Positions 1,262 to 64,000 are shown, counted from the stretch's first letter. The stretch: 64,000 bases of DNA from an uncultured Planctomycetia bacterium (GCA_903929765.1 CAIYVX010000039.1:32573-96572); one strand, 5' to 3'. The notes: generated by a model from the sequence alone, not told the origin. Translations and numbers: made by a program.

Positions 1262-1500
1262 TTTGCTTCTTCTTCTGTTTCTTCACCCCTCCCCCTTGAG
1301 GGGGGAGGGTGGCCGCTTTAGCGGCCGGGTGAGGGTGCACCGGTTGCTCACAAATCGTTGCGAGCGTGCTGTTTCCGTTTCTTAGGCTTCTTCTGTTTCT
1401 TCACCCCTCTCCCTTGAGGGGGGAGGGTGGCCGCTTTAGCGGCCGGGTGAGGGTGCACCGGTTGCTTCAATATCACCGTGTGCTGCTGTTTCTGTTGCTG
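1262..1500. repeat. Tandem duplication (~118 bp x2), each unit carrying a family-A palindrome (CACCCCTCCCCCTTGAGGGGGGAGGGTG + GGCCGCTTTAGCGGCC)
   Basis: Units about 1265-1380 and 1383-1500 are near-identical and share CT-rich linkers. Confidence 0.8.
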
Positions 1501-1505
1501 CTGTT

Positions 1506-1536
1506 CCTTAAGCCTTAAGCCTAAGGCCTATAGCCT
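1506..1536. repeat. Family-H CTTAAG-palindrome element (CCTTAAGCCTTAAGCCTAAGGC)
   Basis: Related copies at 2482-2510, 10185-10205, 11264-11296 and 60571-60603, always just beyond a stop codon. Confidence 0.6.
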
Positions 1537-1695
1537 CTCCTCTTATTTTCGACCCTTCTTCCCCATCCGATTCAGCAAAACGCCCCCTCTTCCCCGCCCA
1601 AACCCCTCATTTTTCCCCCTATCCCATGGACCTCTCATTCCTTTCCTTGACACCCGCCCCGCCCACTCGTACAATCATCTCGGTCGTTGCTTTTT

Positions 1696-1750
1696 CACCC
1701 CTCTCCCTTGGGAGCGGGTGGCCCGAAGGGCTGGGCGAGGGGTTTAGGCC
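1696..1750. repeat. Family-A palindromic element (CACCCCTCTCCCTTGGGAGCGGGTG + GGCCCGAAGGGC)
   Basis: Core CCCCTCTCCC-TTG/AGG-GGGAGAGGGG palindrome. About 20 copies in the window. Confidence 0.8.
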
Positions 1751-1792
1751 ACGGCCCGCCCGAAATTTATATCCTCACAAAGGAAACTTGCC

Positions 1793-2380
1793 ATGGATGT
1801 TAAATCTGGTTTTACCGGTCTCGCCTGCCTCGCCGCCGTCGCCCTCGGTGCCGTCCTGTTCGTCGTCGCCCTCTGGTTCATCTTCGCCTACAACGGCCTC
1901 GTCCGACTCCGCAACACCGTCAAGGAAGCCTGGGCCCAGATCGACGTCCAGCTCAAGCGCCGCTGTGACCTCATTCCCAACATCGTCGAGACCGTCAAGG
2001 GCTATGCCGCCCACGAACGCGAAACCCTCGAAAACGTCGTCAAGGCCCGCCAGGCCGGCCTCTCCGCCACCGGCGTCAAGGAACAGGCCGAAGCCGACAA
2101 CATGATCACCGGCGCCCTGGGCAAACTTTTCGCCCTTTCCGAAGCCTACCCCAATCTCAAAGCCAACGAAAACTTCCTCGCTCTCCAGGAAGAACTCAGC
2201 TCCACCGAAAACAAAATCGCCTTCTCCCGCCAATACTACAACGACAGCGTCCGGACCTTCAACACCAAGATCCAGGTCTTCCCGACCACCATCGTCGCCG
2301 GCCTCTTCCACTTCCAGCCCGCCGATTTCTTCGAAGTCACCGACGCCGCCCAACGCGAAGCCCCAATAGTTAAGTTCTAG
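1793..2380 (+). CDS. lemA: LemA family membrane protein
   Basis: N-terminal TM helix then YNGLVRLRNTVKEAWAQIDVQLKRRCDLIPNIVETVKGYAAHERETL, a typical LemA core. RBS AAAGGAAA upstream. Paired with a downstream HtpX-like gene as is common. Confidence 0.9.
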   Translation: MDVKSGFTGLACLAAVALGAVLFVVALWFIFAYNGLVRLRNTVKEAWAQIDVQLKRRCDLIPNIVETVKGYAAHERETLENVVKARQAGLSATGVKEQAEADNMITGALGKLFALSEAYPNLKANENFLALQEELSSTENKIAFSRQYYNDSVRTFNTKIQVFPTTIVAGLFHFQPADFFEVTDAAQREAPIVKF

Positions 2381-2430
2381 TAGGGTGCGTGCTGGCACGC
2401 ACCATGTAGGGTGGCTGCTTGCAGCCACGC
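2379..2430. repeat. Family-G hairpins (GGGTGCGTGCTGGCACGCACC + GTAGGGTGGCTGCTTGCAGCCACGC) overlapping lemA stop
   Basis: The same TGTAGGGTGGCTGCTTGCAGCCACGC occurs at 9853-9880 after the stop of 7984..9849. A related TGTAGGGACAGGGTTCTACCCTGTCC sits at 33425-33452 after the MBL-hydrolase stop. Confidence 0.7.
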
Positions 2431-2531
2431 GGAAAATAACTCCGTTTTCCGATTTGCGTTGCCGTTGCTTTTTTTTTTCCTGAAGCCCGAAGCCTGAGGC
2501 CTGAAGCCTCTTTTTCCGTCCGAGCCTTCCG

Positions 2532-3578
2532 ATGGCCAGTTTCGATGCCCTCATCGGCGAAAACAAACGCAACACGGTCCTCCTCGTGGCCGTGGTCACT
2601 CTCGTCTTTTGCCTCCTCGCCGCCGCCATTGGACTCGTCGTTTTCGGCTGGGAATCCCAGTCCCAAAATGTTACGGTCATGTCCCATAGCAGAACGTATC
2701 ACGACGTAATTGAAGCACATCAGGAGTACCAAGGCCCCTCCTTCGCCTTCGTCCTCGCCATCTCCATCGGCGCCGCCATCGCCGTCGCCGCCATCATGAC
2801 CCTCTTCTCCTACTTCGGCGGCGCCGCCGCCCTCATGGCCGTCAGCCACGCCCGCGAAATCCAGAAGTCCGACGACCCCCAGCTCTGGAACGTCATCGAA
2901 GAACTTTCCCTCGCCGCCGGCCTCCCCATGCCGCGCGTCTACCTCATCGACGAACCCGCCATGAACGCCTTCGCCACCGGCCGCGACCCCAAACACGCCG
3001 CCGTCGCCATCACCGCCGGACTCCGCCAGAAACTCACCCGCGACGAGCTTCAGGGCGTCATGGCCCACGAACTTTCCCACGTCCGCAACTACGACATCCG
3101 CCTCACCATGTTCGCCGCCGTCATGGCCGGCGTCGTCGTCCTCATGGCCGACTTATTTCTGCGCTACCTCTGGTTCGGCGGCGGACAGCGCCGCGACTCC
3201 AACTCGCGCGGCGGAAACCCCCTCCAACTCATCCTCCTCATTTTTGCTATTGTTCTGGCCATCCTTGCGCCGATTTTTATCAAGATCATCCAGCTCGCCA
3301 TCAGCCGCCAGCGCGAATACATGGCCGACGCCGCCGGGGTCGCCCTGACCCGTTACCCCGAAGGGCTGATCTCCGCCCTCCGAAAACTCGAAACCGACGA
3401 GGAACCCCTTCATGCCGTGACCAGGGCCACCGCCCATCTCTTTATCGTCAATCCTCTCAAGGCCGAAGACCAGCGCTCACACCTCAAGGCTTCCAACCTC
3501 TTCCAGACTCACCCCGACCTCGAGGACCGTATCGCCCGTCTTCAGTCCATCGGAACCGCCGCCGCCCCAGGAAAATGA
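2532..3578 (+). CDS. htpX: M48 family zinc metalloprotease (HtpX-like)
   Basis: HEXXH motif (MAHELSHVRNYD), multiple TM segments, and the LemA-HtpX gene pairing. Confidence 0.85.
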   Translation: MASFDALIGENKRNTVLLVAVVTLVFCLLAAAIGLVVFGWESQSQNVTVMSHSRTYHDVIEAHQEYQGPSFAFVLAISIGAAIAVAAIMTLFSYFGGAAALMAVSHAREIQKSDDPQLWNVIEELSLAAGLPMPRVYLIDEPAMNAFATGRDPKHAAVAITAGLRQKLTRDELQGVMAHELSHVRNYDIRLTMFAAVMAGVVVLMADLFLRYLWFGGGQRRDSNSRGGNPLQLILLIFAIVLAILAPIFIKIIQLAISRQREYMADAAGVALTRYPEGLISALRKLETDEEPLHAVTRATAHLFIVNPLKAEDQRSHLKASNLFQTHPDLEDRIARLQSIGTAAAPGK

Positions 3579-3582
3579 TCTT

Positions 3583-4470
3583 ATGAACCTCCGCTCTTCG
3601 CTTATCGCTTCTTTTTCTAAACTCTGCACTTCTCTGGGGGTGCCACACTTTGGCCCCGGCTGTTCGGGGCAAAGTGTGTGGAATCACGGCCAACACAAGC
3701 CGCATCGCTCCTTCGCCGTTTTTTTTAAATTTTTAATTTTTAATTTTTCATTTTTAATTCTCTTCTCCGCCTCCGGCTGCCAGCCGAATAACGTCGTCGA
3801 CTCCGTCCCACCGCCCCTCGTCTCCCATACCAAGCCCTGGGCTTCCCTGGAAATCCCGCACCCCATGCCCGCCCCGTCCCGCACCCCCGCCCAACTTCCC
3901 GCCGCCCAACGCGCCCCGCTCCAGAAGGTTCCCGCCGCCGCCACCCCGCTCTCCGCCCCCAATCCCGCCTGGATCGCCGCCGATCCCGGTAAATGGCAAT
4001 ACATCATCATCCACCATTCCGCCGAACCTAACGGCAGCGCCTCCACCTGCGACCGCGCCCACCGCCAGCGCGGCTGGGACGAACTCGGCTACCACTTCGT
4101 CATCGGCAACGGGTCCCTCACCCCCGACGGACTCGTCGAAATCGGCCCGCGCTGGTGGCAGCAAAAGCACGGCGCCCATTGCCGACCCTCCCCCACCGAC
4201 GACAACCACTGGAACGAGCACGGCATCGGCATCTGCCTCATCGGCAACTTCGACAAGCGCCGCCCCTCCGAGGCCCAACTCGCCAGCGCCGCCCAACTCG
4301 TCGCCTGGCTCATGCGCCAGTGCAACATCCCCCCCGACCACGTCTACGGCCACGGCGGCGTACCCTGCGCCCGCACCGATTGTCCCGGCAAATATTTCCC
4401 CCTCGGCGAACTCCTCCGCCGCGCCGCCGCCATCAACGCCTCCTACCTCACCTCCACCTCCGCCCGCTGA
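3583..4470 (+). CDS. N-acetylmuramoyl-L-alanine amidase (Amidase_2/PGRP domain), secreted/lipoprotein-like; start uncertain
   Basis: KWQYIIIHHSA...GYHFVIGNGS...GICLIGNF motifs. The conserved Cys (FSASGC) aligns with the lipobox Cys of the paralog at 4958. The N-terminal region contains repeat elements D1 and F1. Confidence 0.75.
   Translation: MNLRSSLIASFSKLCTSLGVPHFGPGCSGQSVWNHGQHKPHRSFAVFFKFLIFNFSFLILFSASGCQPNNVVDSVPPPLVSHTKPWASLEIPHPMPAPSRTPAQLPAAQRAPLQKVPAAATPLSAPNPAWIAADPGKWQYIIIHHSAEPNGSASTCDRAHRQRGWDELGYHFVIGNGSLTPDGLVEIGPRWWQQKHGAHCRPSPTDDNHWNEHGIGICLIGNFDKRRPSEAQLASAAQLVAWLMRQCNIPPDHVYGHGGVPCARTDCPGKYFPLGELLRRAAAINASYLTSTSAR
3637..3685. repeat. Family-D hairpin (GCCACACTTTG-GCCCCGGC..GCCGGGGC-CAAAGTGTG)
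   Basis: Copies at 9957-10008, 43135-43180, 43201-43247 and 59071-59122. Confidence 0.8.
3722..3760. repeat. Family-F AT-rich element (TTTTAATTTTTCATTTTTAATT)
   Basis: Copies at 7845-7887 and 43813-43860, plus an inverted copy at 57706-57735. A striking AT island in a 65% GC genome. Confidence 0.75.
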
Positions 4471-4474: not shown

Positions 4475-4840
4475 TTGTCGTTGCCGTTTCTTCTTCACCC
4501 CTCCCCCTTGAGGGGGGAGGGTGGCCGCTTTAGCGGCCGGGTGAGGGTGCACCTGTTTCAATCAAATCACCTGAAGACATGTTGCTTCTTCTGCTGCTGT
4601 TTCCCCGATTACCCCTGCCGCCGGATGGCCTGGTCCGGCGAAGTGTACAGACCATGAAGAGCAACCGTTCGATCGGAAGCCGTTGTTGTTTCTTTTTCAC
4701 CCCTCTCCCTCGGGAGAGGGTGGCACGAAGTGCCGGGTGAGGGGTTGATGCCCTTGCCTCCACAATCTCGCAATGCTGCTGTTTCTGTCCTTCATGATTG
4801 GATATTGAGTGTTGGATATTGGATATTCGCCATTGCTGTT
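4475..4840. repeat. Composite intergenic array: A4 (4496-4552), B1 (4621-4690), A5 (4698-4755), E1 (4793-4833), separated by CT-rich linkers
   Basis: Family B is GGTGGCATGGTCCGGCGAAGACGGGCCATGAAGAGCAACCGTTCGATCGGAAGCCGTTG. Family E is ATTGGATATTGAGTGTTGGATATTGGATATTCGCC. Confidence 0.8.
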
Positions 4841-5599: not shown

Positions 5600-5810
5600 C
5601 ATCCGCCGTTGTTGTTGTTTCTTCAACCACACTCCTAACGTTGGGTGGCATGGTCTGGCGAAGACAGGCCATGAAGATCAACCACTCGACCGGAAGCCGT
5701 TGTTGTTTCTTCACCCCTTCCCTCGGTTGAGGACTTCTCGTCACCACCGCCCGAGCAGAATCCGCACTTCATGATTGGATATTGAGTGTTGGATATTGGA
5801 TATTCGCTGT
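5600..5810. repeat. Composite array: B2 (5641-5712), degenerate A, E2 (5770-5808)
   Basis: Same B -> A -> E module order as 4621-4833. Confidence 0.75.
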
Positions 5811-7189: not shown

Positions 7190-7369
7190 GGCCCCTGCCC
7201 TTTCCCTCTTCACGAGACTATGCCGCTTGTAACTTGTTCTTAATGAATTGCATAACACCCCGTGCAACGCCATCCAGACTACCACCCCCCTGCCAAACCG
7301 TCAATAGAAATTGGCCGCACCCTTGCAACCCCTTCCCCGCCCCGCTATCATCACCCCCGTAGTTGCTGT

Positions 7370-7600
7370 TTTTTCTGTTTCACCCATACCTTGGCCGGTG
7401 GGTGGCATGGTCCGGCGAAGACGGGCCATGAAGAGCAACCGTTAGATCGGAAGCCGTTGTTGTTTCTTCTTCACCCCTCTCCCTTGGGAGATAGTGGCAC
7501 GAAGTGCCGGGTGAGGGGTTTAGGCCCTTGCCCGCCCGAACGGATTCTGACTTCATGATTGGATATTCGTTATTCGATATTCTGCGGTTCGCCGTTTCTT
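7370..7600. repeat. Composite array: B3 (7399-7470), A6 (7482-7540), E3 (7553-7590)
   Basis: Third instance of the B -> A -> E order. Confidence 0.8.
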
Positions 7601-7788
7601 CCCCGGCGCCCTGGCGGGATAGGCTACCGAACCTCTCCACGCTCTCCGCCGCGTCCTGGCCGTCCGGCTCAGGCCCCATGTTCCTCCTCGCCCTCCTCGC
7701 CGCCGCCGTCCTCCTCCTCATTCTCCTCCTCCGCTGGCTCCTCTCCCGCTCGCGCCGCCGACCTTAAAATCTGATTCTCTTCGGCTTT

Positions 7789-7890
7789 TGAGGCCCCCAG
7801 CATTGCTGGGAGATGCCATTGTTTCTGTTGTTTTTGCCGTTTCTTTTCAATTTTTCATTTTTCATTTTTAATTTTTCATTTCACCTTACC
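7789..7890. repeat. C1 hairpin (GAGGCCCCCAGCATTGCTGGGAGATGCC) plus F2 AT-rich element
   Basis: Family C is GAAGCCCCCAGCACTGCTGGGGGATGCCGTTTCTTC. Copies at 10036-10075, 13396-13437, 33601-33645 and 33738-33776. Confidence 0.75.
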
Positions 7891-7983: not shown

Positions 7984-9849
7984 ATGAGTACCTTGTCCCG
8001 TACCGCCGCACTTGTCTCTCTCGCCTTACTCTGTGCTTTCGCTGCTCCGGCTTTCGCCATGAGCCGCGGCCACGAGGCCCCCCTGCCCCCGCCCGGTGTC
8101 CAGGTCGCCGGCGTCGAAGTCCTGACGCGCGGCCCCATCCACGAAGCCTTTGCCGAACCCGTTATCTTTGACCCTGCCGCCGGTCTCATCGTCCCCGTCG
8201 CCCCGCCCGCTCCCATCAACGAATCCGCTCCGGAAATGGGCCCCGCCACTCCCGGCATGTCCTGGATCCCGGGCTACTGGGCCTGGGACCAGGATCGTAA
8301 CGGCTACATTTGGATCAGCGGCGCCTGGCGCCTGGCGCCGCCCAATTGTGCCTGGGTTCCCGGCTACTGGACTCCCGTCTCCAACGGCTACCAGTGGGTC
8401 GCCGGTTTCTGGCTCCCGGGCAACGCCCAGGAAGTCACCTACCTCCCCGACCCGCCGCCCTCTCAGGACATCGGACCCATCGGCCTCGCCCCCTCGCCCG
8501 ACACCGTCTGGATTCCCGGCGTCCAGGTCTGGCAGGGCCGGGGCTACGCCTGGCGACCCGGCTACTGGGCCGCCGCTCAGGCCAACTGGCTTTGGAACCC
8601 CGCCCACTACGCCTGGACCCCGCGCGGCTACATCTTCATCGACGGCTACTGGGACTATCCCCTCTCGCACCGCGGCGTCCTCTTCGCCCCCGCCGCCATC
8701 GAAGCCTCCGTCTACGGCGCCCCGGGCTTCGATTACACCCCCTCCGTCGTCCTGACCAGCGACATCTTTGAAGGCGCCTTCTTCACCTCGCCCGGTTATT
8801 CCACCTACTATTTCGGCGACTACTACGACGACTCCTACAGGACGCGCGGCATCTACCCCTGGTACTCCTACAGAGATCGACACGACTGGTACGATCCCAT
8901 CTACGCCCATCGCGAGTGGAACCACCGCTCCGACAATCCCAACTATGACCGCGACCAGAGACAGCTCTTCTCCTCACGGCAGTCCAACGTCAGCCTCCGA
9001 CCAGCCCGCACCTACAACGCCGAAGTCGACCGCCTCAGGAACCATCCCGAACTCACCGGCCGCTCACCCGCCATGTCCCAGCGAGCCAACGAGGCCGCCG
9101 CCGCTCGCAACACCGCCGCCGTTCCACTGGGCAGGTTGAACACCCAGGACCGCTCCCAGGGCGCCGCCGTCGAACAACAGGTCCATTCCTACACGCAACA
9201 GCGCACCAAATGGGAAGCCCCCGCCACCCAGCCCTCACGCAACGAACGCCCCGCCGTGCAGGAACGTCCCGCTGTCCAGCCCGCCGTCACCCAGCCCGCA
9301 CGCAACGAACGCCCCGCCGTCCAGGAACGTCCCGCCGTCCAGCCCGCCGTCAGGCCCGCCGTCAGGCCCGCCGAGCGACCGGCCGTTCAAGAGCGACCCG
9401 CCGTCCAGGAACGACCTGCCGTCCAGCCGCATCCCGCCGTCCAGGAACACCCGGTTGTCCAGGAACGACCTGCCGTCCAACCGCACCCCGTCGTCCAGGA
9501 ACGACCTGCCGTTCAGGAACGCCCCGCCGCTCAGCCCGCCTCCAGGCCTACCGTCCAGGAGCGTCCCGCCGCACCAACTCGCACCGCTCCTCCCGAGCGA
9601 GTCGCCATCCCGACCTCGCCCGTCCGTGGTCCGACTGTCCAACATGGTACTCCCAACCTCCCCGCCAGACCCGAGGCCCCGGCCCCTCGCGCCGCTCCGG
9701 TCGCTCCCGCTCCTCATGCCGCGCCGCCTGCTCCAGCCGCTCCGGCTGCTCCGGCCGCCCCGACCGCTCCCGCTCCTCATGCCGCCCCGGCTGCTCCGGC
9801 CGCCACTCCGACTCCGGATCATCAGGATCATGGCAACAAGCATAACTGA
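7984..9849 (+). CDS. Secreted YXWGXW-repeat protein with Pro-rich hexapeptide tandem-repeat tail
   Basis: RBS AGGAGA and signal peptide MSTLSRTAALVSLALLCAFAAPAFA. Repeated PGYWxW...GYxWxxGxW units follow. The C-terminal portion carries (ERPAVQ)n and AP-rich low complexity. Confidence 0.6.
   Translation: MSTLSRTAALVSLALLCAFAAPAFAMSRGHEAPLPPPGVQVAGVEVLTRGPIHEAFAEPVIFDPAAGLIVPVAPPAPINESAPEMGPATPGMSWIPGYWAWDQDRNGYIWISGAWRLAPPNCAWVPGYWTPVSNGYQWVAGFWLPGNAQEVTYLPDPPPSQDIGPIGLAPSPDTVWIPGVQVWQGRGYAWRPGYWAAAQANWLWNPAHYAWTPRGYIFIDGYWDYPLSHRGVLFAPAAIEASVYGAPGFDYTPSVVLTSDIFEGAFFTSPGYSTYYFGDYYDDSYRTRGIYPWYSYRDRHDWYDPIYAHREWNHRSDNPNYDRDQRQLFSSRQSNVSLRPARTYNAEVDRLRNHPELTGRSPAMSQRANEAAAARNTAAVPLGRLNTQDRSQGAAVEQQVHSYTQQRTKWEAPATQPSRNERPAVQERPAVQPAVTQPARNERPAVQERPAVQPAVRPAVRPAERPAVQERPAVQERPAVQPHPAVQEHPVVQERPAVQPHPVVQERPAVQERPAAQPASRPTVQERPAAPTRTAPPERVAIPTSPVRGPTVQHGTPNLPARPEAPAPRAAPVAPAPHAAPPAPAAPAAPAAPTAPAPHAAPAAPAATPTPDHQDHGNKHN
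9238..9585 (+). repeat. Intragenic 18-nt tandem repeats (GAACGNCCNGCCGTCCAG) encoding (ERPAVQ)n within the YXWGXW protein gene
   Basis: About 15 units, including a 63-nt higher-order duplication (RNERPAVQERPAVQPAVTQPA x2). Confidence 0.85.
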
Positions 9850-9852: not shown

Positions 9853-10200
9853 ACTGTAGGGTGGCTGCTTGCAGCCACGCAGAAGTAAAACGCCAAAGGC
9901 CGCCCCAAGTTTCTCTTGGAGCGGCCTTTGCTTTTGCCTTGGCCGTTTCTTTTTCCGGGTGCCACACTTTGAAGCCCCGGCGCTTCGCCGGGGCCAAAGT
10001 GTGTGCTTCTTCTTTTTCTTCTTCTTCTTTTTCTTTTGAAGCCCCCAGCAGTGCTGGGGGATGCCGTTTCTTCTTCTGTTGCTGCTTCTTCACCCCTCTC
10101 CCTTGAGGGGAGAGGGTAGGGTGAGGGTGCACCTGTTGCTCCCATATCGCTGGGGGTTGCCGTTTCTTCTCCTTCTTCTGTTCCTTCGGCCTGAAGCCTG
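9853..10200. repeat. Composite array: G2, D2 (9957-10008), C2 (10036-10075), A7 (10091-10132), H3 (10185-10205)
   Basis: Five different repeat families concatenated with CT-rich linkers between two convergent genes. Confidence 0.8.
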
Positions 10201-11079: not shown

Positions 11080-11296
11080 GATTTTGTTGCTTTTTCTTCT
11101 TCATCCCTCGCCCCAGACGATGGGTGGCATGGTCCGGCGCAGACGGGCCATGAAGAGGAAACCGTTCGACTGGAGGCCGTTGCTTCTTCTTCACCCCTCT
11201 CCCTTGAGGGGAGAGGGTAGGGTGAGGGTGTTGCTGTTTCTTCTGCTTCTTCTTTTGTTGCCGTGCCTTAAGCCTTAGGTCTTAAGCCTTAAGCCT
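11080..11296. repeat. Composite array: B4 (11122-11195), A8 (11202-11230), H4 (11264-11296)
   Basis: Lies between the dppC-like gene start and the groES stop. Confidence 0.8.
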
Positions 11297-11585: not shown

Positions 11586-11672
11586 AGCTTCAAATCTCCT
11601 GAGTTTGGTTTTCTCTTTCTAATTATCGTTTCCCGGCGAAACATGGCCGCAAGCGGCCATGCCACCCGTTTT

Positions 11673-13364
<1,692 letters not shown>

Positions 13365-13395
13365 CATTGTTTGTGAGTCCTCCGTTTTTGTTGTT

Positions 13396-13492
13396 AAAGC
13401 CCCCAGCGCTGCTGGGGGACGCCGTTGTTTCTTCTTCTTCACCCCTCTCCCTTGGGAGAGGGTGCCGCTTTAGCGGCGGGTGAGGGGTTGAT
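13396..13492. repeat. C3 + A9 elements immediately upstream of groEL
   Basis: GCCCCCAGCGCTGCTGGGGGACGCC followed by CACCCCTCTCCCTTGGGAGAGGGTG and GCCGCTTTAGCGGC. Confidence 0.8.
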
Positions 13493-13796
13493 GACTATAA
13501 CCTCCACGCTCACTGCCAAGCAGCGCAGCATACATCTTTCGCTGGCTTAAGAAAAGCAAAAAATGTGCCAGAGCCGTTCTCTTTGAACCCGGGTGGTCTG
13601 GCGGCCGCTGTTTGCCGCCATGTTTCGCCGATAATTTCACCCAACCGCGAACCAGTTGAAAGTCCGCAGTCTGCCACTTTGGCAGTGGCGGGGCTGGGCG
13701 GGCGGCCTGGTTTGGCAGGCGACTGATCGACTGAAACGCTCTTCTTCTTAAACGGCTTGGCCCGTATACTGATAGAAGGCAGCGACCGAGGGAGCT

Positions 13797-14868: not shown

Positions 14869-14912
14869 CTTCATAATTGGATATTGAGTGTTGGATATTG
14901 GACATTCGCCGT
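14869..14912. repeat. Family-E element copy E4
   Basis: TTCATAATTGGATATTGAGTGTTGGATATTGGACATTCGCC. Confidence 0.75.
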
Positions 14913-14979
14913 TTCTCCTCCTATACCGGAGCAACCATTTTTCCCGCCATTCGACTACGAAATGCTATAATCCCCGACC

Positions 14980-15846
14980 ATGAACCCAGCTTCCGACCCA
15001 TCCCCTGCCCTCCCCGCCATAACGGTTACGGTCTGCTCCTACAACCGTGGGGCCATGCTCGAACTCGCCCTGGCCGGCTACGACCGCCAATCCTACCGCA
15101 ACTTCGAGGTCATCGTCTGCGACGACGGCTCCTCCGACGGCACGGTCGAACTGGTCGAAGGGCTGAAGCGCCGCCTCTCGTTCCCCTTGCGGCTCTTTAC
15201 CTGGGAAGACCTGGGCTACCGCCGCGCCGGTGTCCTGAACGTCGGCTTCGTCCTGGCCAGGAACCCCCTGGTCGTCTGCACCGACGAGGACTGTGTGCCG
15301 CACCGCGATTTTCTCCTCGGCCACGCCCGCAGGGCCCGGCGAGGACGGTTTTCGCTGGCCAAAGTGGTGAAAGTCGCCGAGCGCGACATGGCCGCCGCGA
15401 CCGTCGAGGGCATCGCCGCCGGCCGCATCGACCGCCTGCTCACGCCCTGGCCGCGGACCAAACTTTTCTACATGCACCTCAAATATTACCAGTGGCTTCT
15501 CTGCCGCACCCCGCTGCGGCCGAAGATGAACGGGGCGAACTTCGCCGTCTGGCGCGACGACCTCTGGGCCGTCAACGGTTTCGACAACACCTTCGTCGGC
15601 TACGGCTATGAGGACAACGACCTGCGCCGCCGGCTCCTCGAAAGCGGCCGCCGCATCCAGGTCGCCGTCCGCCAGGCCGTCACCTTTCATCTCTGGGAAA
15701 AAAAGAAGGGTTACGTCGTCGGCGACTCCGGCGTCAAAAACAAGGCCCACGCCGAACGCCCGACCACGCAAATCATCTGCGCCGACGGCCTCCGCCAGAC
15801 CGCCGCGCGGCTCAACCTCGAAATCCCGCCGGAATATCGAGATTAG
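14980..15846 (+). CDS. Glycosyltransferase family 2
   Basis: ITVTVCSYNRGAMLELAL...FEVIVCDDGSSDGT, plus the DxD-containing region CTDEDC. Confidence 0.8.
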   Translation: MNPASDPSPALPAITVTVCSYNRGAMLELALAGYDRQSYRNFEVIVCDDGSSDGTVELVEGLKRRLSFPLRLFTWEDLGYRRAGVLNVGFVLARNPLVVCTDEDCVPHRDFLLGHARRARRGRFSLAKVVKVAERDMAAATVEGIAAGRIDRLLTPWPRTKLFYMHLKYYQWLLCRTPLRPKMNGANFAVWRDDLWAVNGFDNTFVGYGYEDNDLRRRLLESGRRIQVAVRQAVTFHLWEKKKGYVVGDSGVKNKAHAERPTTQIICADGLRQTAARLNLEIPPEYRD

Positions 15847-17024: not shown

Positions 17025-17027
17025 CGC

Positions 17028-17951: not shown

Positions 17952-18025
17952 GGGCGCTAGTCTACATCATAGGAGATAGTGCCGTCAAGGACGCCCATCA
18001 AAACTGCTTGCGTTTTGGGGATTCT

Positions 18026-43742: not shown

Positions 43743-43842
43743 TGCATACCATCCTTTGCGTTTCCATTTCATGGCGGCAAACAGCGGCCGCCATGCCACC
43801 CGACGTTTTTGCTTTTTGCTTTTAATTTTTCATTTTTAATTT

Positions 43843-46247: not shown

Positions 46248-46518
46248 TTGCCGCGCGGAAATAACTTCCCCGAGCGGCCCAGTGCACGGGCTGGAACCGC
46301 CCGAGGAGAGGTACGGCTTGTCGGAAAGGCGACAGAACGGCAATTTTAAAGCCGCAGGTAACTCGTAAATTCCTTACGCCCCTTCGGGGCTAATAAGAAA
46401 AAGAAGAAGATATATTGTTGACCTTCATACCGGGGGTTTCACCCCCGGCTAGGACCCCCGCGCCCTTTCAGGGCGGAAAACGACAGCAACTACAGAAGAA
46501 ACTGCAGCCCCCGGATAC

Positions 46519-47631: not shown

Positions 47632-47870
47632 GGCAGGCCTCCCCGGCTCTGCCGCCGCAGCGCAAAGGTGCCGCGTCGGCAGAACCGACAAATGCGCCCA
47701 GTCACATGCCGTACCAAGGCCGGGCAAGTTCCGAGTGAGCATCTGTCGCAAGGGCCCTTGCGCTGACCGGCGAACCGCACCTGCGGCACGGTTGTCAGTC
47801 GTATCCAAATACGTTCTCTAACCGGATTGGTTCGGGAGAAAAAATAAATTTCAGAAATGTTTTTGCCGGA

Positions 47871-47913
47871 ACCCCTCTCCCTTGGGAGAGGGTGGCCCTT
47901 CAGGGCCGGGTGG
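47871..47913. repeat. Family-A element A17
   Basis: CCCCTCTCCCTTGGGAGAGGGTGGCCCTTCAGGGCCGGGTGGGG. Confidence 0.75.
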
Positions 47914-47918
47914 GGCTA

Positions 47919-48830: not shown

Positions 48831-48870
48831 GAGTTACACTCCAAAACATAAGGTGATAAATTTCCGTTTG

Positions 48871-50769
48871 TCAGACGCCCAGGCGGGCGAAGACTTTTTC
48901 GGCACGTTTGCGGAGCGGCTCGGGGACGCCGTCGCCGTATTTGTCCAAGAGGTTTTTGGCCAACTCGATGGTCTTCTGGAGTTTGGGCAGCGGGTCGCCG
49001 GCGTTTTTTTCCAGGTAGCCGATCAGGCGGTCGAGGCGGTCGCGATCCTCGGCGGACATCGGCGCCGACGGGGCCGACGGGGCGCGGGGTTGGCCGACAA
49101 AGCGGTAGGCCCCGCCGTTGGCGGCGGCGATTTCGCGCAGGACGCCGGCGCCGATGGAACTGCCGAAGGCAAAGGTGTGGACGACCGTGACGTGGTGCTT
49201 GTTCAGGTCGGCCACCTGTTTGACGGCGGCCGCGCCGGGATCGCCGTCGGTCAGGAGGCAGAGTACGGTCGGATCGAGGGCGAAGGCTTTGGTCAGGCCG
49301 GCTTTGGGATTGGCCCGGCCGTGCGGCACGAAGTCGGCGATGAATTTCAGGGCGGCCTCTTTGTTGTCGTCGCCGGCGGCGATCAGCCCGCCGGGGAGAA
49401 CCTGGGCCGAGTTGCTGCCGCAGAAAACGATGGAAAAATTCTGCTCGCCGGCCAGGGCGGCAATGGACTTGTCCAACTCGGCCTTCACCAGGGCCAGGTC
49501 GCCGCCGGCGGAGGCGGAACAGTCGACCAGGTAGACGACCCGTTTGGCCTGGCGGAAAGGAATGCCGAAAAAGGTCTGGTGCGACTCGGTCTCCTCGTCG
49601 GCCAGTTCCGGGGGCCGGGCAGCGGCGGCGGCCAACTCGGCGGCCACGACCGGCGGAAGTTCGCCGGCGAGATGCGCGAGCCAGGTCGCCGCTTCGTCCT
49701 TCAGCCGCATGGCCTCCTGGCGATCGTCCTTATTCAGGTCGATCACCTGGAGACAGCGGTCGAGGTTCTCGTCGGCCTGTTGCCAGAGGAGCCGCTTGAA
49801 ATAAAGTTCCTTGGTCTCGCCGGCCAAAGTCGCCTCGGCCCGGGCCAGAGCCAGCAGGTCGCCGCCGGCGCCGCCGGAGGCCATGTCCAGGGCGTTGGCC
49901 AGCCTGGCTGCGGCAGCGTTGCCCGAGGCTCGCAACTGCTTGGCGGCGTCGGCGGGCTTGCGGTCGCGCCCGAGTCTGGCAAGGCCGAGCAGGAGGCGGG
50001 CGTCGGGATGGTCCCCCGGCTCGGCCAGATCGGCCTGGGCTTTGGAAATCGAATCATCGAGTTTCTTGAAAAACTCCACGCCCGCGCGGCCCCAGTCCAG
50101 AGAGTCCGGCGGCGAGAGGCTCGCCTGTGCGGCAGCGACGGCGGCGGCCTCCAGAGTTCTCGCCGCTCCGGCCCCGTCGCCCCGGGCGGCCAGGAGTACA
50201 GCATATTCCGCCGCATCGTGACCAAAAGTTTTATTCAGCCAATCCGCCTGGCGCCCCGAAGACAACTCGGCCAGGACGCGCGGGCCGAGGGCCAGCATCT
50301 TTTCGAGGCAGCCCGCGCGCGGGCGGAGTGACATCGACTTCTGGGCGCCCAGGGCGTTGTAGGCCAAGAGGCCGCCGCCGACGGAGGCGCTGGCCAGCGA
50401 GACGACCTGATCGAGACCGTAGCCGACAAAATCGGGCGTGTGGCTGCCCTGGCGAACTTCGTCGAAAATTTTCTCGGCGAGAGTCAGGCCGTCGGCCGAG
50501 CCGGTTACAGCTTTCAGGTCCTGGCCAAAGAGTTCGGCGAACTGTTGCTTCGCCTTGCGGCTGACCGGATGCTCCGGCGGCACCGGATCGATCCGCACAG
50601 GCGGCGCGGGGGCGGCGGGAACGGCGCTGGCGGCGGAACTCGCGGGAAGATCGGAGTTTGCGGCGCGCGCCGCTACGGAGGCCAGAAGCATCGCCAGAAT
50701 AATCGCCGCCAGTTGACCGCCCATCGTCGCCCTCGGTTGGTGAACGTAACGCCCAAACGTTCGGGACAT
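48871..50769 (-). CDS. VWA-domain protein with long N-terminal alpha-helical domain (VWA paralog 2)
   Basis: Signal peptide, about 400 aa of helical region, then VVYLVDCSASAGG (DxSxS MIDAS) ... LLTDGD ... GGAYRFV. Native high GC. Confidence 0.7.
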   Translation of the reverse strand: MSRTFGRYVHQPRATMGGQLAAIILAMLLASVAARAANSDLPASSAASAVPAAPAPPVRIDPVPPEHPVSRKAKQQFAELFGQDLKAVTGSADGLTLAEKIFDEVRQGSHTPDFVGYGLDQVVSLASASVGGGLLAYNALGAQKSMSLRPRAGCLEKMLALGPRVLAELSSGRQADWLNKTFGHDAAEYAVLLAARGDGAGAARTLEAAAVAAAQASLSPPDSLDWGRAGVEFFKKLDDSISKAQADLAEPGDHPDARLLLGLARLGRDRKPADAAKQLRASGNAAAARLANALDMASGGAGGDLLALARAEATLAGETKELYFKRLLWQQADENLDRCLQVIDLNKDDRQEAMRLKDEAATWLAHLAGELPPVVAAELAAAAARPPELADEETESHQTFFGIPFRQAKRVVYLVDCSASAGGDLALVKAELDKSIAALAGEQNFSIVFCGSNSAQVLPGGLIAAGDDNKEAALKFIADFVPHGRANPKAGLTKAFALDPTVLCLLTDGDPGAAAVKQVADLNKHHVTVVHTFAFGSSIGAGVLREIAAANGGAYRFVGQPRAPSAPSAPMSAEDRDRLDRLIGYLEKNAGDPLPKLQKTIELAKNLLDKYGDGVPEPLRKRAEKVFARLGV

Positions 50770-50854
50770 TATACCCGCTCTGATAATTTTGCGTGGCCAA
50801 AACAGCGGCGGCCGGCTGAAGCCGGCCGTTTGCTCATGCTTTCTGTGAATTCAT

Positions 50855-51523
50855 TCATTTCGTCATCAGCATCTTGACATCTTCCTCGTTCACAAAATGA
50901 TACGTCCCCTCGTTCTCTTCGGCGATCTTCCGGAGGAGAGGTTCCCCTTTAGAGTGAATGAAGCTGATCGTATTAACCATCACTTCCTTCTTGGGGTTAA
51001 GCTTCACAATGAGATCAGCTATGCCCGGTTCGAAATCACCATCCGTCACGATGTAGATCCGGTCCGGCTGACAGTCGAAGGCCTTCTTGATCGCCTCCGC
51101 CGGATCCGCCTGTCCGGAAGCAACTATGCTATCTATAAAATCGTAAGCCTTTTCCTTATTGGGAACGGTAGCCGGGAGCATTTTATGCTTACCGGTTGGC
51201 AAATCGAGCGTCGGACCGGAGGAGAAGAATGTGACCCAAAAACTGTCACTCGGTCGCAAAGACCGGATTGAGCGTTTAAGCTCGTGCTTTAAGTAAGGAA
51301 CCGTGTCGGACATCGATGCGGAAAGGTCAATTACGTACACTACCTTTTTCGGCGGTGGAGGTGGCGGAGGTGGGGGGTCGATGATGACACCTTCTGAAGT
51401 GGTCTCTGTCTCCGACGGTTGTGCCGCGCTCATCGCGCTGCCCGGTGTCTCTGCCGGCGGTGGATTTCGTGTCGTGCAGTCCGCCAACAGCATAATAATA
51501 ACCAACATAAGCCCGGTTCTCAT
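50855..51523 (-). CDS. VWA-domain lipoprotein (VWA paralog 3)
   Basis: Lipoprotein signal (MLLADC), P9 linker, and VVYVIDLSASM MIDAS ... IVTDGDFEP ... EGTYHFV. About 52% GC. Confidence 0.75.
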   Translation of the reverse strand: MRTGLMLVIIMLLADCTTRNPPPAETPGSAMSAAQPSETETTSEGVIIDPPPPPPPPPKKVVYVIDLSASMSDTVPYLKHELKRSIRSLRPSDSFWVTFFSSGPTLDLPTGKHKMLPATVPNKEKAYDFIDSIVASGQADPAEAIKKAFDCQPDRIYIVTDGDFEPGIADLIVKLNPKKEVMVNTISFIHSKGEPLLRKIAEENEGTYHFVNEEDVKMLMTK

Positions 51524-51657
51524 GGCTTCTCCTTGAAGTCAGTGCGGCCGCCACAAGAAAATACGTCCCCAGGCCGAGATAGTTCAAAAAAATTGGCCCC
51601 GACGCGAGCCGGGGCTGAGAAAAGAAGAAGAATCCGCCCGCCGTGACAAATTCTCGG

Positions 51658-52395
51658 TCACGACGCCGCTTTGGGGGCCGGGGGTTTCTGGCTGCGCGGC
51701 GTGGCGGAGGGCAGTTCGGGTTCCTTTTCCAGTTTTTTGGCGTCCTCCTCGTTGACGAAGCGGTACTTGCCATTGTTGTCCTCGGCGATGCTTTTGAGGA
51801 GCTTCCGGCCGTCGGAGTAGATAAAACAAATGGTGTTGATACGTACCTTGTGTTTGGCGTTGAGCTGTTTGATCAGGTCGGCGGTCTTCGCGTCGAACTC
51901 GCCGTCGGTCAGGATGTAGATGACGTCGGGCTGGAGGGTGAAGGCCTTCTTCAAGGAGTCGGAAGGATCGGTCTGGCCCTCGGCCTTAATCTTATTGATA
52001 AACTCGTAGGCTTCGCGCTTGTCTTGGTCGTTGGCCGGCGCCAGGCCCGCCGTCTTCGCCGGGAAATCGATGGTCGGACCGGAGGAGAAGAAGGTTATGA
52101 AGAAGGACTGGTCGGATTCGAGAGAACGAATGGAGCGTTTGACCTCGTTGCGGAGATAGCCGATAGTTTCGGTCATGGAACCGGAATGGTCGACGACATA
52201 GGCAATCTTGCGGGCCTTGCCGGTGACGATGCCAAAGAATTCATGGCCGGGCTTGACGGCGCTCGAAGCCGAGGTGGCTGAAGCCATGACGGCGCTGGTG
52301 CTCGCCGCCGGAACGGCCGAACTGTCGGTGTTGGCCGCGAAGAGGAGGTTGAGGAAAAGAAGCAATAGGAAAGCCGCCAGAATTCCGGTTTTCAT
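51658..52395 (-). CDS. VWA-domain secreted protein (VWA paralog 4)
   Basis: Signal peptide MKTGILAAFLLLLFLNLLFAA. IAYVVDHSGSM MIDAS ... ILTDGEFDA ... NGKYRFV. Confidence 0.75.
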   Translation of the reverse strand: MKTGILAAFLLLLFLNLLFAANTDSSAVPAASTSAVMASATSASSAVKPGHEFFGIVTGKARKIAYVVDHSGSMTETIGYLRNEVKRSIRSLESDQSFFITFFSSGPTIDFPAKTAGLAPANDQDKREAYEFINKIKAEGQTDPSDSLKKAFTLQPDVIYILTDGEFDAKTADLIKQLNAKHKVRINTICFIYSDGRKLLKSIAEDNNGKYRFVNEEDAKKLEKEPELPSATPRSQKPPAPKAAS

Positions 52396-52471
52396 TTTTG
52401 GCTCAGAATGAAAGAACAGTTTATGACCGTGGCACCCGATCTTCAACTTTTGCCATTTTACTTTTACCTTT

Positions 52472-55362: not shown

Positions 55363-55431
55363 TATTTGTATCCTGCGCTGGCATTCGCACGGCGGGACAA
55401 GACCCGCCGTGGCACATTCTTATTCATGAGG

Positions 55432-55562
55432 GTTTCAGCCTCAACCCCTCACCCGGCCGCTGCGCGGCCACCCTCTCCCAAGGGAGAGGGGTGAAGAAAC
55501 AAAAACAGCCTCCCCTCGAACGGTCTCTCTTCATGGCCCGTCTGCGCCGGACCATGCCACTC
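55432..55562. repeat. A18 + B6 (inverted) composite
   Basis: Same A/B composite as at 38254-38385. Confidence 0.8.
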
Positions 55563-57706: not shown

Positions 57707-57820
57707 AAATTCAAAATTAAAAATGAAAAATTAAAAGAAGAGGGGAAACAACAGATCAGGCGTGATTAGGTAGAAACAGGTGCACCCTCACCCTACCCTC
57801 TCCCTCGAGGGAGAGGGGTA
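57706..57820. repeat. F4 (inverted) + A19
   Basis: AAAATTCAAAATTAAAAATGAAAAATTAAAAG ... CACCCTCACCCTACCCTCTCCCTCGAGGGAGAGGGG. Confidence 0.75.
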
Positions 57821-59065: not shown

Positions 59066-59144
59066 TTCCGGGTGCCACACTTTGAAGACCCGGCGCTTCG
59101 CCGGGGCCAAAGTGTGTGCTTCTCGAATGCAGGAAACTCATGTG

Positions 59145-59177
59145 CCACGGCGGGCCTTGTCCCGCCGTGGTTTTTTG
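59145..59177 (+). terminator. Rho-independent terminator after Zn-ADH gene
   Basis: CCACGGCGGG-CCTTGT-CCCGCCGTGG hairpin followed by TTTTTTG. Confidence 0.55.
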
Positions 59178-60570: not shown

Positions 60571-60666
60571 CAGGCTTAAGGCTTGAGGCTTAAGGCTTGA
60601 GGAACGGCAAAAGAAGAAACAGCAACACCCTCACCCTACCCTCTCCCCTCAAGGGAGAGGGGTGAA
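60571..60666. repeat. H5 + A20
   Basis: GGCTTAAGGCTTGAGGCTTAAGGCTTGAGG ... CACCCTCACCCTACCCTCTCCCCTCAAGGGAGAGGGGTG. Confidence 0.8.
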
Positions 60667-63079: not shown

Positions 63080-63091
63080 AAGGAGCCTCCG

Positions 63092-63691
63092 ATGGCCAAG
63101 CGAAAAGGTCGGACCGCCGAAGTCGCCCGCAAGACCGGCGAAACGGAAATCACCGCCCGAGTCAACCTCGACGGCACGGGCCGGGCCGAAATCGCCACGG
63201 GGTTGGGGTTCTTCGATCACATGCTGACGCTGCTGGCGCGGCACAGTCTGATCGACCTGTCGATCGAGGCGCGCGGCGACCTGGGCGTGGACGGACATCA
63301 CACGGTCGAGGACGTGGGCATCGTCCTGGGCCAGGCCCTGGATCAGGCCCTGGGCGAGCGGGCGGGAATTGTGCGCTACGGCGCAGCCGCGGTGCCGATG
63401 GACGAGACGCTGGCGACGGCGGCGGTCGATCTGGGCGGGCGGGCCTACCTGGTCTACCTGGCGGAATTTCCGGTCGACCGAATCGGCGAGTTCGACGTGG
63501 AACTGGTGCGGGAATTCTTGCTCGCTCTGGCGAACAACGCCCGGATGAACCTCCACGTCCAGGTGCCCTACGGGGCCAACGCTCATCACCTGGCCGAGGC
63601 GATTTTCAAGGCTACGGCCCGGGCCTTGCGGCAAGCCACGGAAAATGATCCGCGGGCCACGGGCGTGCCGTCGAGCAAGGGGACGATTTAA
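63092..63691 (+). CDS. hisB: Imidazoleglycerol-phosphate dehydratase
   Basis: RKTGETEI...GFFDHML...[11 protein letters not shown]...[12 protein letters not shown]. Confidence 0.95.
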
Positions 63692-63710
63692 GCAGGTTTC
63701 TTGAAAAACA

Positions 63711-63739
63711 TTGACAAAACGGGCTTCGGACGGCACAAT
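63711..63739 (+). promoter_or_regulatory. Candidate sigma70-like promoter for tRNA-Asp (TTGACA-17-CACAAT)
   Basis: TTGACA at 63711-63716 with a 17-nt spacer to CACAAT at 63734-63739, about 40 nt upstream of the tRNA 5' end. Confidence 0.3.
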
Positions 63740-63780
63740 AGTCGTGTTCGGATTTGGCTGATAGATAGGTCCGACGGCGC

Positions 63781-63857
63781 GGGGCCATAGCTCAATTGGT
63801 TAGAGTGCCAGACTGTCGATCTGGAAGTTGCGGGTTCGAGTCCCGTTGGCCTCGCCA
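63781..63857 (+). tRNA. tRNA-Asp (anticodon GTC)
   Basis: Acceptor GGGGCCA/TGGCCTC, anticodon stem CCAGA/TCTGG with loop CTGTCGA, T-loop TTCGAGT, and encoded CCA. Followed by a rho-independent terminator. Confidence 0.92.
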
Positions 63858-63865
63858 CTAACATG

Positions 63866-63908
63866 AAAAGGCCGAAACCGGAGAATGGTTTCGGCCTCTT
63901 TTTTTTCC
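63866..63908 (+). terminator. Rho-independent terminator after tRNA-Asp
   Basis: AAAAGGCCGAAACC-GGAGAATG-GTTTCGGCC hairpin followed by T10. Confidence 0.7.
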
Positions 63909-63920
63909 TATCAGAAACAG

Positions 63921-64000
63921 CAGAAAAAACAACGGTTTCCAGTTCGACGGTTATTCTTCATGGCCCGTCTTCGCCGGACCATGCCACCCGGCGGTTGGGG
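63921..64000. repeat. Family-B element B7 (inverted) at window end
   Basis: TTCTTCATGGCCCGTCTTCGCCGGACCATGCCACCC. Confidence 0.75.

Follow-up and report, generated by a model that had tools for sequence, protein, structure and literature searches.

Background

What are the short repeats that crowd the intergenic regions of a planctomycete chromosome, and what decides which way they point? We address this question for a 64,000-nucleotide (nt) stretch of DNA (GCA_903929765.1, CAIYVX010000039.1:32573-96572; 62% G+C; hereafter the window, meaning the whole stretch) from an uncultured planctomycete (Phycisphaerae). An earlier note, made from the sequence alone, had described here at least nine families of short palindromic repeats in more than 60 copies, populating almost every intergenic region in both orientations, and had read them as miniature inverted-repeat transposable elements (MITEs), as repeats like repetitive extragenic palindromes (REPs), or as structured untranslated-region (UTR) and small-RNA (sRNA) modules. 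To our knowledge, the spread and role of REPs and of BoxC/triplex motifs have been open for decades, BoxC is without a known mobilising activity, and neither kind of repeat has a clear polarity in model organisms.

Here, we find nine families of modules (A to I) joined by linkers into intergenic mosaics, in which modules are gained and lost at orthologous sites and most copies point the way the local G/C asymmetry of the strand points. We put at roughly 0.5 the probability that these are DNA-level repeats in a mosaic like the bacterial interspersed mosaic elements (BIMEs), folding as single strands and depending on the replication strand for their insertion or survival. The components are mostly of known kinds (BoxC/TM-ECO motifs, REPs with a GT[AG]G tag, mosaic arrays), while the new elements are their combination in a planctomycete at very high density, a triplex variant with a hairpin in its loop, an arrangement that runs one way and does not alternate, and an orientation closely tied to an exceptional asymmetry between the strands.

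Number and spread of the repeats

Families B to I were defined in this analysis from intergenic sequence, independently of the definitions in the earlier note, and module copies were counted without linkers in intergenic regions of at least 50 nt (n = 37). This census gave 60 copies in nine families, occupying 2445 of 9756 intergenic bases: 20 of A, five each of B and C, seven of D plus one D-like, four of E, five of F, four of G, three of H plus one H-like, and three of I plus two I'-type copies. Two D-like REPs (at 13593 and 43770) and an I hairpin within a DinG-like gene (41938) stand outside the 60. The earlier observation held in substance, while the repeats proved less widespread than "almost every intergenic region": 25 of the 37 regions carry modules and one third are empty, with near-complete coverage at 1-15 kb and 32-45 kb and near-absence at 15.8-32 kb and 48-55 kb. 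The term "palindromic" suits six families, as single modules of A, B, C, D, H, and I fold as DNA (-9.6 to -23 kcal/mol, z -2.4 to -7.1, D at z -1.5; Watson-Crick pairing only was computed), and does not suit E, F, and G, which are tandem heptamers without a fold (~0 to -4.6 kcal/mol, z not significant).

Chance does not account for these numbers. Diagnostic motifs of all nine families occur 3-34 times against 0-1.6 expected from 100 first-order Markov simulations (e.g., A hairpin 34 vs 0, C 10 vs 0, F 5 vs 0.02, G 4 vs 0, H 3 vs 0.03, and the linker 7 vs 0.03). The family A sequences singled out earlier were found where they had been placed and above expectation, with 48 matches to CCCCTCTCCC at up to one mismatch (9.5 expected) and seven to GGCCGCTTTAGCGGCC (0.15 expected), including those at 1311, 1429, and 4523; the spurious peptide LLHPSPLRGEG is indeed a translation of linker plus A3 (10085-10117). 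In a self-BLAST, short interspersed repeats were confined to non-coding DNA, and repeats in coding DNA were paralogues or internal protein repeats.

Nor are the repeats confined to the window. Scanning public metagenomes for the linker plus the start of A returned 86 other contigs, essentially non-redundant and without overlap with the window, on which all other families are also present; the D core pattern had no match in the GTDB genome collection. The majority of the 86 are only 1-3 kb long, as expected if the repeats break assemblies.

Orientation follows strand composition

The skew between G and C at third codon positions (GC3 skew) on the + strand is extreme in the window and independent of gene strand:

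Genes at 1-11 kb: -0.50 to -0.75
12-31 kb: mostly weak, -0.42 to +0.21
31.7-35.8 kb: -0.2 to -0.5
36.7-54 kb: mostly +0.25 to +0.5

The sign switches near 36.3-36.7 kb. Across 75 related contigs the mean absolute GC3 skew is 0.37; according to SkewDB, a typical GC skew is ~2.5% (PMC8941118).

The modules follow this asymmetry. Rather than occurring in both orientations, as had been claimed, they are polar, "+" left of ~36 kb and "-" to its right, and 47 of the 53 orientable modules agree with the local sign of the GC3 skew. The same holds on independent contigs, where A matches the skew of the genes around it on 57 of 63 (p = 1.6e-11) and GTAG hairpins do so by 23:2. The other families share the orientation of A on these contigs (D 6:0, C 8:0, E 3:0, F 8:0, G 5:0, H 6:0, I 2:0, and B 7:1), and so do the two main linker motifs (36:0 and 26:0), with a third, GTTGCTGCTG, at 6:3. 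The T-rich linkers run against a weak A>T tendency at synonymous sites of the same strand.

The 400-nt spacer at the skew switch holds five GGAAATT/AATTTCC motifs in both orientations (36340-36510), which flank an AT-rich palindrome, GCATATATTATAGTATGC; most simply, the array is a promoter or operator of the neighboring HEAT-repeat gene. A dif-like palindrome at ~36412-36440 was set aside, given its weak likeness and its simpler explanation as the - strand -10 element (TATAAT) of the promoter of that gene. DnaA boxes number eight in the window against four expected, which is not significant, and lie 12 kb from the switch; three DnaA-box-like sites (TTATCCACA twice, TTGTCCACA once) fall within 220 nt at 24215-24432, between a dockerin-protein gene and pfkB.

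Gain and loss at orthologous sites

Comparison with related contigs (numbered with an L) bore out the presence/absence polymorphism for which the earlier note had proposed to look. Between thiS and thiG, where the coding flanks are conserved across relatives, the window and the identical L124 carry A3 plus A2 (a 186-nt spacer), L128 carries one B (117 nt, 1124-1240), L125 three B (245 nt, 1688-1932), and L127 a spacer of 4 nt. The pentamer TGAGA, present once at the empty junction of L127 (1994-1997), flanks the B insert in both L125 and L128 and could be a 5-bp target duplication, maybe from a single event.

A second site is the groEL leader, the stretch that separates a sigma-54-type promoter from the ribosome-binding site. 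The promoter (TGGCAC-N5-TTGC) is kept in all relatives examined, as follows:

Window: ~13545-13565 (-)
L001: ~2283-2300
L129: 1081-1100
L002: ~9821-9836
L005: ~9859-9874

The leader of the window contains C plus A2, that of L001 (GroEL 96% identical to that of the window) an unrelated I-like hairpin, and that of L129 (88% identical) neither. As orthologous sites carry different modules or none, modules have been gained and lost: insertion, replacement, and loss have all affected intergenic sites, among them sites within operons and 5' leaders.

Family A is a BoxC/TM-ECO module

Family A, with 20 copies, all intergenic, or about one per 3.2 kb, has the layout CCCTCTCCC - loop - GGGAGAGGG - loop - GGGTGAGGG, and by its sequence is the known BoxC/TM-ECO "intrastrand triplex" motif, whose C-rich arm has two G-rich arms as alternative pairing partners. 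Its copies are of three types, A1 and A2 with an inner hairpin and A3 without:

1284-1335 (+): A1, BoxC/triplex-type, inner hairpin GGCCGCTTTAGCGGCC
1402-1453 (+): A1, tandem duplicate of the copy at 1284 (period 118 nt)
1696-1741 (+): A2, short first loop and inner hairpin; in the LemA leader, 3' of a sigma-70-like promoter (1647-1675)
4496-4547 (+): A1
4698-4743 (+): A2, after D
7472-7517 (+): A2, after D; downstream of promoter 7323-7351
10091-10127 (+): A3, no inner hairpin
11192-11228 (+): A3
13440-13486 (+): A2, groEL 5' leader, antisense to groEL
27542-27588 (+): A2 without the usual linker; polarity exception
33549-33585 (+): A3
38262-38307 (-): A2, after D on the - strand
38407-38443 (-): A3
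44691-44738 (-): A2, thiS-thiG spacer
44777-44813 (-): A3, thiS-thiG spacer
45117-45162 (+): A2, degenerate, at the edge of an inserted low-GC segment; consistent when scored by mean flanking skew
47870-47913 (+): A2, degenerate tail; polarity exception
55446-55493 (-): A2, after D
57785-57820 (-): A3
60628-60664 (-): A3

Holder et al. (2015), who equate TM-ECO with BoxC, give the pattern CCCTCNCCC-N3-6-GGGNGAGGG-N3-GGGNGAGGG and report it from 262 proteobacterial genomes, with a maximum of 143 per genome (PMC4666352); among their E. coli copies, no. 2 nearly equals A3. A direct comparison agrees: with a 45-nt A3 query, matches were found in 4899 of the 5426 complete E. coli genomes, where identity reached 92.7% over 40 nt, the median was 11 places per genome, and the eight best matches listed overlapped no annotated feature. 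An exact-pattern scan of one genome per species found the three-block layout at at least 32 loci in many phyla, the matches listed including Enterobacteria, Nitrospirota, Myxococcota, Acidobacteriota, Deinococcus, Alpha- and Gammaproteobacteria, and several Planctomycetota.

All three blocks (CCCTCNCCC and two of GGGNGAGGG) are intact in 17 of the 20 copies; block substitutions occur in the copies at 1696, 7472, and 45117, and that at 47870 also has a degenerate third block. The first loop, 3-6 nt in the published pattern, measures 4-5 nt in A1 and A3 (TTGAG; TCGA at 57785) and is only TT or TC between the full 9-nt blocks of A2, so that there the terminal pair must open. The second loop departs from the published pattern, which has exactly 3 nt (TTA or CCG types): it is 2 nt (TA) in A3 and, in the 13 copies of A1 and A2, 14-17 nt that form a covarying hairpin, making these a variant of the published triplex pattern. 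Across 45 distinct A1/A2 sequences, drawn both from the window and from related contigs, hairpin 1 has one covarying pair (UA/CG) and hairpin 2 has three, and the 3' GGGTGAGGG is invariant, where the search pattern itself allowed only GGG[TC]GAGGG. The A1 copy at 1284 folds at -19.8 kcal/mol (z -4.2).

Family A thus resembles published TM-ECO/BoxC in its three-block sequence, strictly intergenic location, local variability between strains, and lack of an associated mobile-element gene, and differs in its planctomycete host, its density (~1 per 3.2 kb against that published maximum), its second loop, its fixed linkers and combination with other modules, and its strong strand polarity. The motif has also been described as a G-quadruplex-hairpin switch (bioRxiv 10.1101/032615). 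The A2 layout is moreover that of the RNA motif whalefall-1 (Rfam RF01762), i.e., a YCUCUCC/GGAGAGR hairpin, a second variable hairpin, and an unpaired GGGUGAGG; however, A2 scores 20.1 and 19.4 bits against a gathering score of 37, so family A is no member by Rfam's rule, and its orientation is not tied to transcription.

Families D, H, and I carry the REP tag

The mark of a REP is a hairpin preceded on its 5' side, at a distance of 0-2 nt from its foot, by the tetranucleotide GT[AG]G (PMC6006769), and a GTAG REP super-family is already known, including in Planctomycetes (PMC3733652). A generic scan for the tag plus a hairpin found 23 elements in the window against 6.9 in shuffles, 15 of them intergenic, of which 14 have stems of at least eight pairs; in 334 kb of DNA of the lineage it found 72 elements (45 distinct), with many GTAGG-headed families that differ in internally complementary stems. 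D, D-like, H, and I carry the tag, and their shape upholds the REP-like part of the earlier reading. The elements are:

2380-2403 (+): H, GTAG REP (GTAG G GTGCGTGC TG GCACGCAC)
2406-2428 (+): H, GTAG REP with a different, compensating stem (GTGGCTGC TT GCAGCCAC)
4624-4685 (+): D, degenerate
5645-5702 (+): D, with a compensatory C-G to T-A change
7402-7459 (+): D
9856-9878 (+): H
11124-11182 (+): D, antisense to the flanking - strand genes
11642-11665 (-): D-like REP (GTGG + CATGGCCGC TT GCGGCCATG) between groEL and groES; L001 has a D-like hairpin here too
13593-13622 (+): D-like REP, conserved in L001
32695-32741 (+): I, direct pair of GTGG/AGTG-tagged hairpins (CACGGGCA TCT TGCCCGTG)
33427-33451 (+): GTAG REP of another sub-family (GTAGG GACAGGG TTC TACCCTGTCC), overlapping the stop codon of an MBL gene
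33482-33528 (+): I
38311-38371 (-): D
41076-41122 (-): I
41938-41960 (+): I hairpin, in frame within the DinG-like helicase between its DEAD_2 and Helicase_C_2 domains
43770-43799 (-): D-like REP
55388-55415 (-): I'-type hairpin GTGCCACGGCGGG..CCCGCCGTG
55503-55560 (-): D
59142-59169 (+): I'-type hairpin
63930-63987 (-): D, after the tRNA-Asp terminator

REPs have fully paired basal stems of 7-20 bp and loops of 2-5 nt. The stem is 8-9 bp long in H and 8 bp in I, with loops of 2 and 3 nt, respectively. D consists of GTGG and the hairpin CATGGTCYGG..CCRGGCCATG, followed by a tail of ~30 nt; its stem of 9 bp includes one G.T wobble, and its 7-nt loop lies slightly beyond the REP range. The T.G wobble is conserved at a fixed stem position. 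We discarded the notion of D as a small protein gene or sRNA, since its ATG open reading frames (ORFs) vary in length and frame among copies and no promoter is shared upstream.

These hairpins are thus like REPs, and like the REP doublets (REPINs) associated with REP-associated tyrosine transposases (RAYTs, also TnpA-REP), in being short, GC-rich, 5'-tagged with GTAG or GTGG, multi-copy, and intergenic, with several families per genome, and in having one copy within a repair-helicase gene, as Di Nocera et al. describe REPs within replication and repair genes. They differ in the 7-nt loop and conserved tail of D, in copies that are co-oriented instead of in inverted doublets, and in that the available sequence yielded no RAYT, of which a cognate gene with REPs on its flanks would form a REPtron. 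Pfam detected no RAYT, other transposase, or HUH/Y1 nuclease among the 51 predicted proteins of the window, and tblastn with an approximate YafM probe detected none in the 86 contigs (~225 kb of fragments in total), so the RAYT/transposase search that the earlier note had called for came back empty. In the more distant relative L005, H and I do form inverted doublets.

Remaining modules and the grammar of the arrays

In B, a long hairpin, the outer stem (GCCACACTTTG / CAAAGTGTG) is conserved and the inner stem varies with compensating changes; inverted doublets of B are common (43141/43202 in the window, L125, L129), and that at 43141/43202 folds at -42.7 kcal/mol (z -7.1). C is an 8-bp hairpin with fixed asymmetric flanks, GAAG-CCCCCAGC-NNN-GCTGGGGG-ATGCCGTT. 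E, F, and G are tracts of three to five heptamers, (TTGGATA)n, (GCCTKAA)n, and (TTTTTMA)n, respectively. Their positions are as follows (no strand assigned for B):

1505-1536 (+): F
2479-2509 (+): F
3642-3684: B
3719-3763 (+): G
4791-4830 (+): E, non-hairpin
5768-5807 (+): E
7552-7592 (+): E, diverged
7790-7820 (+): C
7844-7881 (+): G
9961-10003: B, -22.9 kcal/mol, z -7.1
10038-10068 (+): C
10183-10199 (+): F, short
11266-11296 (+): F, adjoining the groES stop codon
13396-13426 (+): C, groEL leader
14870-14917 (+): E, conserved at the orthologous site of L001
33602-33632 (+): C
33738-33768 (+): C
43141-43181: B, left half of inverted doublet
43202-43244: B, right half of inverted doublet
43818-43850 (+): G, polarity exception
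57707-57736 (-): G
59074-59116: B
60573-60600 (-): F

The connectors are (GTT/CTT/GCT)n tracts whose lengths differ in multiples of three, and the modules recur in set combinations (D-A, C-A, A-F, A2-E). Some polypyrimidine linkers (10010-10037, 33716-33740) contain mirror-symmetric tracts (e.g., TTCTTTTTCTTCTTCTTCTTTTTCTT) of the kind that can form H-DNA, and would be a second triplex-prone element beside A. A small hydrophobic candidate ORF (MFLLALLAAAVLLLILLLRWLLSRSRRRP) lies in mid-array between E and C modules (7673-7770).

The BIMEs of E. coli are intergenic mosaics whose units alternate in orientation. The arrays are like them in that a limited set of hairpin units, together with conserved connectors that are not palindromic, yields recurring combinations, and differ in that all units point one way and the set is larger, with triplex motifs, heptamers, and trinucleotide linkers; in this lineage A and C to I are co-oriented, without the inverted or alternating units of REPINs and BIMEs, and only B is found in inverted doublets. 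In heterocystous cyanobacteria, the short tandemly repeated repetitive (STRR) sequences are likewise heptanucleotide tracts at many intergenic sites, from which E, F, and G differ in sequence, phylum, shortness, and inclusion in mixed arrays. The MITE reading did not hold up, as the arrays are without clear terminal inverted repeats and the hint of a target duplication is limited to the TGAGA at thiS-thiG.

What organizes the arrays?

In the reading we favor, the arrays would comprise four components: (i) BoxC/TM-ECO modules (A), with or without the extra hairpin in the second loop; (ii) the REP hairpins D, H, and I, whose GT[AG]G tag would be recognised by RAYT-type HUH/Y1 single-strand nucleases; (iii) the other hairpins, B and C; and (iv) slippage-prone heptamers (E, F, G) with their trinucleotide linkers. 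Polarity would arise from structures that form in single-stranded DNA at the replication fork, by either of two routes: strand-specific insertion, as in the insertion sequences IS200/IS605, or preferential excision and deletion of copies exposed on the lagging-strand template, which would leave one orientation. Any influence on mRNA stability or translation would be a side effect. We prefer this reading because strand composition organizes the repeats, and the one process known to link hairpin-bearing repeats to a DNA strand, not to genes, is the transposition or processing of single strands at the fork, as in IS200/IS605; replication-coupled orientation bias is established for those elements (PMC3971601, PMC6006769). 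The IS200/IS605 elements IS608 and ISDra2 are alike in an orientation tied to strand asymmetry rather than to genes and in their dependence on hairpins in single-stranded DNA (PMC3971601, PMC6006769), and differ in being autonomous, with a transposase gene and with the lagging-strand template carrying their active strand; in the present arrays it is the C-rich strand that bears the tag.

Several observations weigh against this reading. We infer the link from skew to replication, taking the asymmetry to mark replication direction, and the window has no dnaA gene, oriC, or dif; the genes show no preference for the G-rich strand (43:46), and G/C and A/T skews at third positions are uncorrelated (rho -0.01). 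G/C asymmetry without A/T asymmetry is not a textbook replication signature. Assignment of strands through tRNA genes found only one such gene in 83 contigs. The leading strand is usually the G-rich one, and under that rule the strand with the tag and the purine motif would lie on the leading-strand template, opposite to insertion of the IS608 type, so that the model of loss or survivorship, which would fit better, must be invoked. The GT[AG]G tag is absent from A, B, and C; the enzyme searches given above, by Pfam in the window and with the approximate probe in the contigs, were negative; and the conserved E module at the orthologous site of L001 could be a regulatory site, not a mobile repeat. 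Finally, TM-ECO has no strand bias in E. coli (PMC4666352), and the polarity of the A motif across other phyla is 19:11, which is not significant; the polarity may hence be a property of this lineage. That the co-orientation of every family reflects one fork-coupled single-strand process, by orientation-specific insertion or loss, is accordingly a proposal we make with some hesitation and hold to be clearly less probable than the mosaic reading as a whole.

We think it improbable that the modules are cis-acting RNA elements, i.e., UTR or intercistronic hairpins that stabilise or destabilise mRNA, terminate transcription, or act as sRNAs. In E. coli, REPs protect upstream mRNA, and many copies here are in transcribed leaders or 3' regions: a promoter scan placed modules in sense within leaders, A2 after 1647-1675 and D-A2-E after 7323-7351, and C plus A2 lie in the groEL leader. 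Covarying hairpin pairs, the conserved T.G wobble of D (tolerated on one strand only), the whalefall-1 layout of A2, and the sense D-like hairpins between groEL and groES in two relatives would likewise suit an RNA. However, orientation relative to genes is random, with A between same-strand genes of the other contigs 12 sense to 10 antisense and tandem intergenic regions of the window 7 to 5, while orientation relative to composition is ~90% fixed; an F-A3-C-B array, for example, lies antisense in a 3' region, upstream of the - strand terminator 9930-9894. Modules carry no T-tails, on which ground we rejected a terminator role, and genes have their own canonical hairpins (5871-5841 and 9930-9894). 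The terminator scan picked up no hairpin module, its sole match on a module being a weak 5-pair stem in an F tract (2496-2510). At curated thresholds, tRNA-Arg and tRNA-Asp are the only Rfam matches in the window, with whalefall-1 at 20 of the 37 bits. We conclude that the modules are carried passively into transcripts, in either sense and half of them antisense. As E, F, G, and the linkers are also unstructured, and orthologous leaders tolerate unrelated modules or none, a dedicated RNA function is unlikely as the organizing principle, and the UTR, sRNA, and terminator roles suggested earlier find no support as the leading explanation.

Comparably improbable in our view are polar signals of chromosome architecture, in which proteins of replication, segregation, or the nucleoid would bind or load at the modules and have to read them in a single direction relative to the moving fork. 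Comparators would be the FtsK-orienting polar sequences (KOPS) and Chi, or the binding of BIMEs by gyrase, integration host factor (IHF), and Pol I. Such sites would explain why every family is co-oriented with strand composition, the very high density of A, and the invariant cores, namely the loop of D and the unpaired GGGTGAGGG in the 45 A1/A2 sequences (as far as the search pattern allowed variation). Yet the strongly skewed, native-looking 48.9-54.8 kb is module-free, orthologous sites differ freely and include an empty one, which argues against a site-specific need, nine unrelated families would need nine readers, and the A motif is without strand bias in E. coli.

We would be equally surprised if the mosaic came about without any mobilising enzyme, through replication slippage, template switching between hairpins close to each other, gene conversion, and strong strand-specific mutation pressure on intergenic DNA free of constraint. 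Linkers that vary in 3-nt steps, the heptamer tracts, the local tandem duplication of A1 with its 118-nt period, and the failure to find a transposase by the searches above all speak for it, and the TM-ECO literature ties the motif to local instability and names no mobile element (PMC4666352). On the other hand, identical modules of 40-60 nt stand at many unlinked loci and on the 86 other contigs, A is near-identical across phyla, which local slippage or mutation pressure cannot yield, and the T-rich linkers oppose the synonymous-site tendency of their strand. We rejected an assembly artefact, as the modules recur in independent assemblies from several projects.

Gene content and other features of the window

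GroEL (11673-13367, - strand) has its top matches in uncultured Planctomycetota/Phycisphaerae (96%, 88%, 84%, and lower); the groEL-groES gene order recurs in relatives, and L002 and L005 have a second groEL 3' of groES. The predicted proteins represent ordinary housekeeping and accessory genes, those identified by Pfam including FapA-like, LemA, M48 peptidase, amidases, GroEL-GroES, glycosyltransferases, a DNA methylase, DEAD and DinG helicases, ThiS/ThiG, a cluster of VWA paralogues, and HisDCB. Further features are:

9210-9820: WXXGXW secreted protein with proline/alanine-rich 9-nt and 54-63-nt repeats, unrelated to the intergenic families
15843-20731: DNA methylase (N6_N4_Mtase) and two large proteins without a Pfam match; weak skew, module-free; resembles acquired DNA, possibly a restriction-modification or defence island
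22300-23420: dockerin-domain secreted protein with internal tandem units of ~160 nt, unrelated to the intergenic families
45031-46518: segment with a coiled-coil gene (45267-46247, +; 50% G+C), one "+" A2 copy, and a short direct repeat at its edge (GGATAAAACGCAAC, twice)
46519-52446: row of four VWA-domain paralogues, the source of most "repeats" within coding DNA

The segment 45031-46518 is an insertion relative to L125, L127, and L128, where the VWA gene with its terminator directly adjoins the thiS promoter and thiS.

Implications

The repeats had been called unusual, a view that calls for some qualification, as family A is long known (PMC4666352) and GTAG REPs are known in Planctomycetes (PMC3733652); unusual are the density, the co-occurrence of many families, and the strand polarity, which the earlier note had missed. 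In practice, such repeats break metagenome assemblies, give rise to spurious ORFs, and could pass for RNA motifs, as may have happened with whalefall-1.

If one fork-coupled single-strand process does underlie the co-orientation, BoxC motifs would be mobile elements of single-stranded DNA, much as REPs are, and the direction of the replication fork in this lineage would be written in the arrays. The asymmetry itself (mean absolute GC3 skew of 0.37, with neither a matching A/T skew nor a gene-strand bias) may point to an unusual mode of replication or repair. With a density ~10x the published maximum, gain and loss visible between near-identical relatives, and an orientation coupling of ~90%, the lineage offers a natural system in which to study a replication-strand-dependent mechanism.

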